DNA of 35,012 nucleotides from Pseudomonadota bacterium (GTDB lineage Bacteria; Bdellovibrionota_B; Oligoflexia; Oligoflexales; CAIYRB01): contig JANOTL010000068.1 in the NCBI GenBank assembly GCA_031416315.1, forward strand, positions 1 through 35,012, given 5' to 3'. A model generated the notes under the pieces. It made no database searches and had not been told where the DNA came from. It saw only the letters and a list, made by a program, of their open reading frames with translations. Within the stretch, counting starts at the first letter, position 1. The number at the start of each line of letters is the position of its first letter. Made by a program: the position numbers and the translations under genes. Positions 29,806-32,990 of the stretch are shown piece by piece.

Positions 29806-29863
29806 TTTCGGTACCTTAACCACTTTCGCTCAATTGCGTGGCGCAGCTTTCCGAAACGGAAGC

Positions 29864-30976
29864 ATGCGCCACTTTGCTTTTATCCCCATCGTCTTCATGC
29901 TCACGGCCTGCGGCTCGACCAGCCTCAGCGGCACGTCTGGTAAGAACGGCGCGGGCGAAAAAAAGGACGCGCCGCCCGAAGGCGGCAGCGACGACGAGCA
30001 GATCGTCGACGCTAAACCCTCGGCGCCGGTCTCCGGGGCCTTCTTGGTGTTTTGCGGTGAGGCTCCGGACGCGGATGGCGCGACGGCGCCGGCAGCCGGC
30101 TCGGTCTGGTACGGATGCGGCGTCTTCGACGCGGCCAAGGCCAAGCTGGACCGCAAGATCGAGACCGTGAGCCTGACGTTCACCGACGGCGTTGCTCATG
30201 ACGCCGCGTTCGTTCCTGCGGCGCCAACGAGCCGCTACTCGACTTTGACCGCCGTGGTGAAGACGCGGATCCAGCTTTTGAGCGCGGTCAGCGTCAAAGT
30301 CGCCGGCGAGCTGGCCGCGACGTCTGCGACCTTGGAGCCGGCGGTCTTGGTCGACGATCCCGTGAAGGAGTTGGAAGTTCCCTGCCCCGTAAGTAGCGTC
30401 CGCAATCTGGATACGCGGAAATGCGAAGACCTCATCCCGATCGAAGACTTCATCCCGATCTATGTTTGGAACCGGATAGAGGCGACCGGAGTGCCGCCCG
30501 GCGAGATCCTCTTTTTCAAGCCCGAAGGTACCGAGGAAATCCGTTTCAAAAGGGTGGACGATCCGGTCTTTTACGCGCTCGCTCCGACGAAATGCGCAGT
30601 TGGAACGCGCGTCCAAGCGTCAGACCAAGTGGACTGCGCGTTGCGCGACGACGGAACCCTGGCGGACGGTACCGTGCCGATCTTCGACATCTTGAAGGAG
30701 CATGACGAAAAACCGACCATTCGCGCCCATACTTCGGGCCCTGACGCCGTGTTTCTCGAAAACGAACCCGCTGAAGTGAGCTGGAGAGTCCATGCACAAC
30801 GTCTTCGCCTCGTCCGGTCGATAGGTGCCGGCGAAGGCAAATGGATCCAGATCCACCCTTGGCACAAGGGGACGATCTTCACATTGGGTACTTCCGAAGC
30901 ACCATTTTATCCCGACAGCGCGGTTGGCTTCAAAATGGGTCGCCCGCTCGGCTACGCCTTCATGCCCGCGCGATAG
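29864..30976 (+). CDS. Hypothetical lipoprotein
   Basis: Signal 'MRHFAFIPIVFMLTAC' in a 370-aa ORF. Its stop TAG (30974-30976) lies inside the left TAGTTA direct repeat. Confidence 0.7.
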   Translation: MRHFAFIPIVFMLTACGSTSLSGTSGKNGAGEKKDAPPEGGSDDEQIVDAKPSAPVSGAFLVFCGEAPDADGATAPAAGSVWYGCGVFDAAKAKLDRKIETVSLTFTDGVAHDAAFVPAAPTSRYSTLTAVVKTRIQLLSAVSVKVAGELAATSATLEPAVLVDDPVKELEVPCPVSSVRNLDTRKCEDLIPIEDFIPIYVWNRIEATGVPPGEILFFKPEGTEEIRFKRVDDPVFYALAPTKCAVGTRVQASDQVDCALRDDGTLADGTVPIFDILKEHDEKPTIRAHTSGPDAVFLENEPAEVSWRVHAQRLRLVRSIGAGEGKWIQIHPWHKGTIFTLGTSEAPFYPDSAVGFKMGRPLGYAFMPAR

Positions 30977-30977
30977 T

Positions 30978-31036
30978 TAGTTTCTGGCGCGGAACGCGCC
31001 AGAAACTATCCTGAGGGCGAAGCCCGAAGGATCTCG
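30978..31036 (+). repeat. Left 59-bp inverted repeat (double hairpin, REP-like)
   Basis: TAGTTTCTGGCGC-GGAAC-GCGCCAGAAACTA followed by TCCTGAGGGCGAAGCCCGAAGGATCTCG. Exact reverse complement of 32905-32963. Confidence 0.95.
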
Positions 31037-31084
31037 CCCGATTGCACCTCCGCTCGCGCCTTTCGGTCCGCCGTGGCGTTTGCT

Positions 31085-32479
31085 CTATGCTGCTTTCGTT
31101 GAGGTATCGCTCTGCTTCTTGATCATCTGTCGCAGGTTGAAGCCAAAGATAGAGCCGTAGCCCGCGGCGAGCGTTGCCGCATCGCTTTTCATTCTGCTGC
31201 GTCCGAGTTGTCCCCCGTGTTTGGCGCGACCGATCAGCGGTTCGATTCCTGCCCGCCGATTTCGGAGGCGCTCTTGGACCTCCGGACTCGGCAAGCCTCG
31301 CCGATTCTTGCTGTTGCCCGGCCGCTGTAGCCCGCTCACGATTCTGCGCGATGCGAGCGCACACTGATTCTTCGCGCTCCAATAACCCTTGTCGGCGCTT
31401 GCCGAAGTGAGCGAGCCATCGCCGAAGATGGTCGCGTGCTCGGCGAGCATCGACACGAACGAATGCTTGTCCTCCATCCGAAGTGAGTTTGACGCCAGGA
31501 TGAAGAGAAAGTTTCCCTTGATGCGACCGAGTTGGAAGACCCTTCCGAACTCGTTCTCTTTGCCGACCTTGCCCTTCCTGATGCAGGCGACGTCCCGAGC
31601 ATGAAAGGCAAGCGCCTTGCCGGCCTTGATCGTATGCGTACGAGTGAAGTGTCCGACGTCGAGTAGGTAACGCCAAGCTTGGGCTCTGATCTGATCGGCA
31701 GCGTGTCGGATGTTCCATGGCAGTCGCCGAAGGCGGCGCTCGTCGAGAGCGTTGCAAACCGCAACGATGGGACGCATCTGCTGCTTGACGAGCCGATGGA
31801 GGTCATTGAATGCCGAACGACGTTTCTCGATGTCGGCGTTCTTCGGCATGAAAAAGTAGGCCCGGGCCTTGGCTTTCACGGTCTTCATGTCGACGGCGAA
31901 GTCCGTTGGCAGCAGGCCCCGAGTCTTCGCCTTCAAGAAGTCGACGACCTTGCGCCCAAGGCCGCTGAGCTTGGTCATGAGGCTTGCATCGGACGGATAC
32001 GCGATGTTCGCCTCCTGCACGGTCGAATCGATATCGACGTCGCTTGGATCGGCGAAGCCCAGCGCCACGGCTACTTTGGCTGTCTCGTTGGCAAGCAGGC
32101 GCTGCGTCTCGGGTGAAAGGCGACTGCGAAACTCTTCGATCTTCGTATGATCGGGCGACCGCCAGCCGGTCACAGTCCCAAAGCCAGAGAACAACTGGTA
32201 GGCAGCGTTGTCTTTTAGGCCGTATTCGACCTGCCGATCGGTCAAGTCGTAGAGCTTCTGAAGGATGTAGGCGGCGAGGTGGACTCGCACGAGGAGTCTT
32301 CTCCCCGTCCACCAACATCCTTTCGCCGTCGTCCGCTTTAGGTCCGGCAGGACCACAGCGATCAGGAATGCCCAGGGCAGGGCATTGGCGAGCTTGATCA
32401 GTGGGTGATCCTTGGTGACCGCGATCGTGATGGCGGCTGGCCCAACGGCGGTGTCGCCGCCAGAGACGTCGAGGCTCAT
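31085..32479 (-). CDS. IS5-family DDE transposase
   Basis: 'HPLIKLANALPW', 'LTDRQVE...NAAYQLFSG', 'IDSTVQEANIAYPSD', 'CIRKGK...EFG', 'ADKGY' and 'RRAGIEPLIGRAK'. Confidence 0.9.
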   Translation of the reverse strand: MSLDVSGGDTAVGPAAITIAVTKDHPLIKLANALPWAFLIAVVLPDLKRTTAKGCWWTGRRLLVRVHLAAYILQKLYDLTDRQVEYGLKDNAAYQLFSGFGTVTGWRSPDHTKIEEFRSRLSPETQRLLANETAKVAVALGFADPSDVDIDSTVQEANIAYPSDASLMTKLSGLGRKVVDFLKAKTRGLLPTDFAVDMKTVKAKARAYFFMPKNADIEKRRSAFNDLHRLVKQQMRPIVAVCNALDERRLRRLPWNIRHAADQIRAQAWRYLLDVGHFTRTHTIKAGKALAFHARDVACIRKGKVGKENEFGRVFQLGRIKGNFLFILASNSLRMEDKHSFVSMLAEHATIFGDGSLTSASADKGYWSAKNQCALASRRIVSGLQRPGNSKNRRGLPSPEVQERLRNRRAGIEPLIGRAKHGGQLGRSRMKSDAATLAAGYGSIFGFNLRQMIKKQSDTSTKAA

Positions 32480-32608
32480 CGTTGTGGCGCCTTCGTTGCA
32501 AGTCGTTGGTCCTTGGGTTGATGGCGCGATTCTACCATCATGTCATTGGACGTCAGCCACTGGCATTGCGAAATTGGACTTCGGCGCAAAGATCCGAGGA
32601 GCATCGCA

Positions 32609-32935
32609 ATGGCATACGGTTACGTATCCATGTTGACGAACGACCGGATAAACGTGCTTTACGTCGGCTCGACGAACGATTTATGCAAGCGCTTGGTGCA
32701 CCATAAGCGCCGCCTGATCCCGGGATTCACGAAAAGGTGTAGCGTCCATCGGCTGGTATACTTCGAACGACTTGCGGATATGGATGCTGCGCGGCGCCGC
32801 GAGCGTCAGCTCAAGGGGCTTAGCCGCGCCAAGAAAGACGCGATCGTCGACCTTGGTAATCATGAGCGTCGTGATTTGTCTGCGGAGGTCGGCGCTGTAA
32901 TCGACGAGATCCTTCGGGCTTCGCCCTCAGGATAG
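32609..32935 (+). CDS. Small stand-alone GIY-YIG nuclease family protein
   Basis: 'YGYVSML....VLYVGSTNDLCKRLVHHK....GFTKR....LVYFE......RRERQLKG.SRAKK'. RBS GAGGA precedes ATG 32609. The stop lies inside the right inverted repeat. Confidence 0.88.
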   Translation: MAYGYVSMLTNDRINVLYVGSTNDLCKRLVHHKRRLIPGFTKRCSVHRLVYFERLADMDAARRRERQLKGLSRAKKDAIVDLGNHERRDLSAEVGAVIDEILRASPSG

Positions 32936-32963
32936 TTTCTGGCGCGTTCCGCGCCAGAAACTA
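32905..32963 (-). repeat. Right 59-bp inverted repeat
   Basis: CGAGATCCTTCGGGCTTCGCCCTCAGGATAGTTTCTGGCGCGTTCCGCGCCAGAAACTA is the exact reverse complement of 30978-31036. Confidence 0.95.
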
Positions 32964-32990
32964 GTTATCTCAGAACGCTAACGGCGCGCC

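Follow-up and report, generated by a model that had tools for sequence, protein, structure and literature searches.

The window analyzed here is the whole of contig JANOTL010000068.1, a stretch of 35,012 nucleotides (C68 in our numbering) from the 226-contig genome assembly GCA_031416315.1, which is labeled as a Pseudomonadota bacterium and belongs to the order Oligoflexales in GTDB. Between genes for a lipoprotein-like protein and a thioredoxin, it carries a transposable element with long inverted repeats and two divergent genes, one for an IS5-like DDE transposase and the other for a small GIY-YIG nuclease of the Ssn type. A first-pass annotation made from the sequence alone had noticed the long repeats, the TAGTTA hexamers that flank them, and the two genes, with the transposase apparently intact; all of this was borne out. 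The 59-bp arms (30978-31036 and 32905-32963) are exact reverse complements when compared within the window, and they form its longest inverted repeat (65 nt at 97%; the runner-up has 51 nt at 75%). The transposase gene is an unbroken open reading frame (ORF) with a DUF772 domain, and the nuclease gene matches PF01541, the GIY-YIG family of Pfam; the match of the transposase to the IS5 model is below threshold.

The same annotation had proposed aligning the copies in the same genome, and doing so defined the ends of the element and its target duplication. Among the ten own-genome copies with both flanks, seven have a 6-bp direct repeat. Because two pairs that depart from the consensus also repeat directly (TAGTTC/TAGTTC at C202 and TATCTA/TATCTA at C109), the duplication length is fixed at 6 bp and the ends are fixed as G...C. 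The suspicion that the duplication was partly a coincidence of the palindrome is not upheld by these copies. A duplication of 2 bp or 4 bp with the TA inside the element was also considered and was ruled out by the C202 flanks. The flanking hexamer is TARYTA at 43 of 51 own-genome positions, and direct-repeat flanks, read by eye or by script, surround 8 of the 11 units in other genomes. We conclude that the unit is one IS5-like DDE element and that its 6-bp target duplication is genuine.

The host genome contains a second full element (C158), which has the same layout, is 79% identical in nucleotide and 81% in amino acid sequence, and has its own version of the long repeats. A 411-bp deletion derivative (C82) matches the window copy at both ends with 96-98% identity, retains the 3' pieces of both genes, and is flanked by TAGCTA/TAGCTA; its joint recurs in a second assembly of the sequencing run from which this DNA may derive. 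The recurrence of the layout in C158, in the C82 derivative, and in homologous two-gene elements of other samples supports the first of two readings offered initially, namely a two-gene element with structured ends and a nuclease passenger. C199 consists of an intact nuclease gene and a stub of the transposase 3' end; because the stub is retained, this nuclease-only unit is a deletion product. Overall, two pattern scans identified about 54 hairpin ends of three subfamilies in this genome (52 genuine among 55 rows in one scan and 54 genuine among 61 rows in the other, with one hairpin counted twice). Among the derivatives are miniature inverted-repeat transposable elements (MITEs); in one of these (C200, 1-330), two MITE subfamilies are fused inside the hairpin, and another (C101, 1-400) is truncated by an apparent other transposase gene.

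The transposase scores 176 bits against the NCBIfam IS5 model NF033578 (cut-off 275) and 122 bits against the ISNCY model NF033593 (cut-off 325). Its nearest named elements are of the IS1478 type, with 27% identity over 93% of the protein (E ~1e-13), and a literature search did not place the IS group of the element. All 22 aligned transposases have D151, D363, and E413 without exception. The best fold match of the structure model (pLDDT 80.9) is the Tn5 transposase (Z 15.5, rmsd 3.8, 258 aligned), a Foldseek search with the same model gave weak integrase matches only (E ~0.08), and no solved structure was matched in a sequence search with the transposase profile. The ratio of nonsynonymous to synonymous substitution rates (dN/dS) is 0.10-0.15 over 16 pairs. 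In three loci (L021, L061, and L066), a hairpin-like insertion breaks the transposase near residue 420-430.

The nuclease gene starts best at 32609, as it does in homologues, and not at 32540, the start of a longer ORF. As a tblastn query, we used the NTS-flanked SsnA homologue of Neisseria gonorrhoeae (95 residues) in place of the N. meningitidis protein; the query gene has eight NTS-like copies around it, with up to two mismatches allowed, and its Y6, Y17, and E64 are as in SsnA. The query matched the window nuclease with E 3.7e-14 over residues 6-90 (89%) and the C158 nuclease with E 1.3e-16. In the accessible text of the SsnA study (Chenal et al. 2025, PMC11893778), Ssn proteins are delimited as single-domain GIY-YIG proteins of ~95 aa with E below 1e-10 over >75% of SsnA; thus, the window nuclease is an Ssn homologue. 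Searches of solved structures by sequence gave UPF0213-type matches only. All 15 intact nuclease relatives that we aligned have Y6, Y17, and E64, and in L057 the Y17 position is Cys. The window copy has Ser at the Y6 position, and so lacks the full catalytic set; it departs in 3 of 29 otherwise invariant columns, the first catalytic tyrosine among them. According to the same source, the SsnA Y6A mutant keeps binding and loses cutting (PMC11893778). Judging from these substitutions, the nuclease of the window copy is probably inactive.

In a tree of 49 nuclease proteins, the 22 element-borne sequences all fall within one 24-row clade (support 99/98), which is nested among free nucleases. The two remaining rows of this clade, classed as free, are a gene that lies close to the start of its contig and has no hairpins (L086/L164) and a decayed remnant (L098/L165). 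The dN/dS of the nuclease is 0.05-0.27 (13 pairs), and its distances follow those of the transposase across 13 elements (Mantel r 0.90, 0 of 5,000 permutations). The element-borne nucleases have a single origin and are under purifying selection. The single clade, the dN/dS values, and the co-divergence thus point to one capture, after which the two genes were long inherited together under selection, the nuclease being lost or replaced in some cases. In one subgroup, the nuclease gene is co-oriented with the transposase gene (L022, 2114-2383; L061, 266-535; and L021), and therefore it is inverted within the element there.

Each 57-bp end is a composite of a family terminal repeat of ~15 bp, a mirror copy that forms a hairpin with this repeat, and an Ssn-type hairpin without the GTC head (Table 1). 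The first-pass annotation had found no separate short repeats near the transposase, and there are none there; they were overlooked because the long repeats themselves contain them, as their outermost 15 bp. As single strands, five nuclease-type ends fold with z-scores of -4.3 to -6.4, compared with -0.6 for a plain relative. A perfect 11-bp mirror is present in 90 of 98 ends, although the search pattern itself fixed six of the eleven positions; at the five free positions, counted over 21 types, 36 of the 42 changes away from the ancestral repeat have a mirrored counterpart. Within one element, the ends can be unlike each other, each still being self-complementary (L022 and L158), the loop of subfamily B is found in both orientations (GAAA 20 vs TTTC 16), and in three ends (C178, L157, and L163) the palindrome overwrites the flank with a copy of inner sequence. 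In the mirrored changes, loop flips, and flank overruns, we see the marks of fold-back copying. The accessible part of PMC3004938 describes recombination between the terminal repeats of ISs, which could homogenize the two ends. One subfamily (3' end of L018 and L166, 1-60) has a very different terminal repeat, GATTTTGCTGAAAAAGG, yet it is mirrored and fused to an Ssn-type hairpin.

Table 1. Features of the element and its flanks in the window
Feature	Position	Strand	Remark
Left copy of target duplication, TAGTTA	30974..30979	.	TAG serves as stop codon for the 380-aa ORF upstream
Whole element, 1,982 bp	30980..32961	.	Ends G...C set by non-consensus duplications at C202 and C109
Left terminal inverted repeat	30980..30994	+	Variant of the family's GTCGCTGGCGCGAAA
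Mirror copy of left terminal repeat	30995..31006	+	Pairs with 30980-30991
Left Ssn-type recognition hairpin (SRM-like)	31007..31036	+	No GTC head; C after the stem retained
IS5-like DDE transposase, 464 aa	31085..32479	-	Intact; D151/D363/E413
Promoter-like site upstream of transposase	32529..32556	-	CTGACG, 16 nt, TG-TAGAAT; consensus match only
Ssn-type GIY-YIG nuclease gene, 108 aa	32609..32935	+	Runs into right repeat; Tyr7->Ser, Tyr44->Cys, Asn45->Ser
Right Ssn-type hairpin	32905..32934	-	
Mirror copy of right terminal repeat	32935..32946	-	
Right terminal inverted repeat	32947..32961	-	
Right copy of target duplication, TAGTTA	32962..32967	.	

Relatives of the transposase were identified at 33 loci in a genome scan, two of them with the nuclease, and at 21 loci in a metagenome scan with a four-protein alignment, where 17 have the nuclease beside the transposase (two of these being near-duplicates). 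The nuclease-less relatives come from several phyla and are plain insertion sequences (ISs) with the repeat GTCGCTGGCGCGAAA and TANNTA flanks, the repeat corresponding to the outer part of the long ends. Copies of the transposase with short repeats of their own and without the nuclease had been named initially as what would refute a two-gene element. Such relatives do exist, but their repeats and duplications match the outer ends of the window element, and thus they represent the ancestor form of the unit rather than a nested IS. For the same reason, the nuclease is accessory: elements without it have the same repeats and target duplications. In a transposase tree of 56 rows, from which duplicates and matches shorter than 240 aa were excluded, the 21 rows that have the nuclease all belong to a single 26-row clade (SH-aLRT 88). 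Nuclease and inner hairpin are strictly paired: the hairpin is found in 21 of 21 nuclease-bearing rows and in none of the other 35, five of which are nested in the clade (flanks are short in some). Among 131 genomes of the phylum, 20 contain the hybrid end, up to 106 times per genome, and all of these belong to the order of the host; a reversed control pattern gave one match. In viral contigs, 30 pattern matches looked like chance, and none of the 30 had either gene.

Other observations concern the makeup of family members. The slot upstream of the transposase can hold other passengers: a ~105-aa orphan in L002, L023, L062, and L069 (the one tested has no Pfam match), DUF6398 in L045, and a similar protein in L032, the last two in nuclease-less elements from Gammaproteobacteria-type hosts. 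At L061, L064, L067, L068, and L166, one member has landed in the target duplication of another, giving tandem arrays; in L068, a 27-bp terminal hairpin also stands alone with a target-like hexamer on each side.

The element represents a real family and no accident, and it joins two known kinds of system. One of these is Ssn with its NTS/SRM hairpins (SsnA, CDD cd10448; Chenal et al. 2025, PMC11893778). As in that system, the protein is a single-domain GIY-YIG nuclease of ~91 aa (40-44% identical to the NTS-flanked N. gonorrhoeae homologue), intact copies retain the three catalytic positions, and two hairpins of the ATCC..GGATC type face inward on either side of the gene. Unlike in that system, the hairpins also enclose a DDE transposase and are joined to the terminal repeats of an IS; they have no GTC head and do not fit the published SRM pattern. 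The accessible text of that study remarks on the IS-like layout of NTS-ssnA-NTS and names no transposase partner. Our literature search, whose reach did not extend to most subscription papers, returned no report of an IS carrying Ssn.

The other kind of system is the IS5 family (NF033578; nearest IS1478). The element resembles it in the DUF772 N terminus, the DDE residues with R-x3-E-x6-K spacing, the RNase H fold, the short terminal repeats that start with G, the T/A-rich target duplication, and the MITE derivatives. However, elements of the IS5 group make a 4-bp duplication at YTAR, whereas ours makes a 6-bp duplication at TARYTA, falls below the model cut-off, and has 57-bp ends with a mirror arm and a second hairpin as well as a second gene.

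Several other systems bear a partial likeness. A transporter IS (tIS) carries a non-transposase passenger gene, as this family does in its exchangeable passenger slot; in contrast to a tIS, the likely recognition site of the passenger is built into both ends here and is lost along with the passenger. In the IS200/IS605 and IS607 families, an accessory nuclease (TnpB or IscB) rides with the transposase and is not needed for transposition chemistry. The conserved nuclease beside our transposase is similar in this respect, but it has no guide RNA, and its predicted target is a single-stranded DNA (ssDNA) hairpin within the element, not the empty donor site. Finally, the inner hairpin is a CGTC-type repeat, and the MITEs resemble doublets of repetitive extragenic palindromic (REP) sequences. 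In the accessible text of Di Nocera et al. (2013, PMC3733652), REPtrons and TIRtrons use HUH tyrosine transposases, TIRtrons can have double palindromic ends, and CGTC repeats are found without a dedicated transposase. Our element differs in its DDE enzyme, its 6-bp duplications, and its headless CGTC derivative; domain scans and the fold match found only DUF772/DDE and GIY-YIG between its repeats, and no HUH tyrosine transposase.

Taking the unit, its ends, its target, its non-autonomous derivatives, and the pairing of nuclease and hairpin as observed, we lean, with little more than even confidence, toward a single IS5-like IS that is likely moved by its own transposase and whose Ssn-type nuclease likely acts on the hairpins in both ends. 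The DDE enzyme would very probably recognize the outer 15 bp and cut and join there, as in the nuclease-less relatives, with derivatives moved in trans. The nuclease would then probably bind the inner hairpin once an end is single-stranded. SsnA acts on single strands only and cuts the forward strand only, 8 nt before the stem (a 20-nt product of the NTS75 oligonucleotide), as the accessible text of PMC11893778 describes. The Neisseria geometry, if it holds here, would put the cut at 30999/31000, within the paired mirror arm. The chances seem evenly balanced that a nick ~8 nt upstream of the hairpin is followed by fold-back repair that copies the terminal repeat into a protective mirror arm. 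This arm might then pair over the cut site and limit more cutting, so that the scar would also be the shield. The least certain point is why the nuclease is kept; our preferred guess is that it stimulates repair and copying at the element ends and cuts rival hairpin-bearing DNA that enters the cell single-stranded.

Several points weigh against this reading. Flanks are not direct repeats in 3 of the 10 own-genome copies (two are inverted and one differs) and in 6 of 8 short metagenome contigs, only 2 of which have direct-repeat flanks; the explanation we favor, though unproven, is that repeats collapsed in these assemblies. An empty site was not seen: in the one further genome of the genus (82% complete), no element stands next to the thioredoxin gene, but the adjoining gene is a different one. 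No joint bypassing the element was found in the contigs of four runs, which is no evidence, as contigs lose rare variants. The transposase tree is a quick tree with SH-aLRT 88 for the 26-row clade, 5 of the 26 rows in this clade lack the nuclease (three of those having another passenger), and the dS of nuclease and transposase pairs is near saturation. With respect to the mechanism, the three overruns begin at the transposase nick site and not at the expected Ssn site. Ordinary template switching at palindromes likewise yields mirror arms, loop flips, and overruns. The GTC head is present in none of the 98 element hairpins, although the stem and the following C are retained, and the long mirror arm persists in two nuclease-less members, L059 and L062. 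For the Neisseria enzyme, cutting depends on the head more than on any other part (accessible text of PMC11893778), and because it is missing here, the element nuclease may bind without cutting.

The missing head and the mirror arms of the two nuclease-less members, together with the exchangeable passenger slot of the relatives, could also mean that Ssn is cargo that is inert on the element's own ends and is kept for a benefit to the host or in competition, for example by cutting incoming ssDNA that carries related hairpins, the mirror arms having arisen by ordinary template switching. SsnA does limit the integration of transforming DNA in Neisseria, as the accessible text of PMC11893778 reports. 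We consider this account possible but rather doubtful. Inert cargo sits poorly with a hairpin at both ends, one of them 1.4 kb from the nuclease gene, and with the absence of the hairpin from every nuclease-less row. Nor does the genome have an excess of published SRM motifs that might serve as an alternative target: they number 50, compared with 69-83 in three shuffles. A loose search of the same genome for free CGTC hairpins gave 102 matches that looked like chance, and the published SRM pattern had no match beside the C158 nuclease gene or two other element nuclease genes. Hairpins beside five free Ssn relatives have the same stem, and all 12 of them have the CGTC head. In the free Ssn cassettes L087, L088, L090, and L101, shortened copies of the hairpin head are stacked upstream at ~22-nt spacing (7 of 12 hairpins).

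A more far-reaching alternative would have Ssn domesticated as a second transposition enzyme of a DDE transposon with self-folding ends, moving from ssDNA or by hairpin-primed copy-out: the mirror arm would provide a duplex binding site, the 3' end would be freed by the transposase and the 5' end by Ssn, and the lost tip would be rebuilt from the 57-bp repeats. The strong folding of nuclease-type ends, the loop flips and fold-back overruns, and selection on the nuclease as strong as that on the transposase would all suit such cooperation, as would a forward-strand cut upstream of the hairpin, which corresponds to the 5' end of the element on each strand. However, relatives without the nuclease or the mirror arm make the same 6-bp duplications, derivatives without either gene also have duplications, the window copy combines an intact transposase with a probably dead nuclease, and the predicted cut would take off the outer repeat; we therefore regard this alternative as unlikely. 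If true, such a transposon would be a hybrid between cut-and-paste and hairpin-based transposition.

The second reading offered by the first-pass annotation, an ordinary IS inserted into a free Ssn cassette with long repeats, is hardly credible: although free Ssn genes with adjacent CGTC hairpins stand at five loci in the same phylum and C199 bears only the nuclease, the nuclease hairpins are enclosed by the IS terminal repeats, not the reverse, with no second pair of these repeats near the transposase, the layout recurs in 21 elements with co-diverging genes, and C199 is a deletion product.

For the spread of CGTC/SRM hairpins and ssn genes, this element family offers one concrete route, in which a DDE element carries along the nuclease, cassettes with the nuclease alone, and hairpin MITEs by the dozen (up to 106 ends in one genome), all with target duplications. 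This route leaves the first origin of the hairpins unexplained, because free cassettes are the older form. In this family, an IS and a conserved accessory nuclease of a kind other than TnpB have also stayed together for a long time, so that the reasons for which transposons retain such nucleases can be tested in a system of only 2 kb. Natural Ssn variants with headless hairpins are candidates for new single-strand cutting specificities.

Three further observations concern the surroundings of the elements and the records searched. The lipoprotein-like 380-aa ORF upstream of the window element (29834-30976, + strand) has no Pfam or NCBIfam match, has two distant paralogues in the genome, and was not found at the corresponding place in the congener genome. 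The TARYTA hexamer is often the stop codon of a gene: 16 of 47 ends close an ORF of at least 100 codons, compared with 79 of 474 other TARYTA sites (Fisher p 0.009), an excess that may reflect target choice or survival bias. Lastly, a 2.17-Mb N. gonorrhoeae record that is filed as a plasmid (NZ_CP119140.1, our L168) looks like a whole chromosome.

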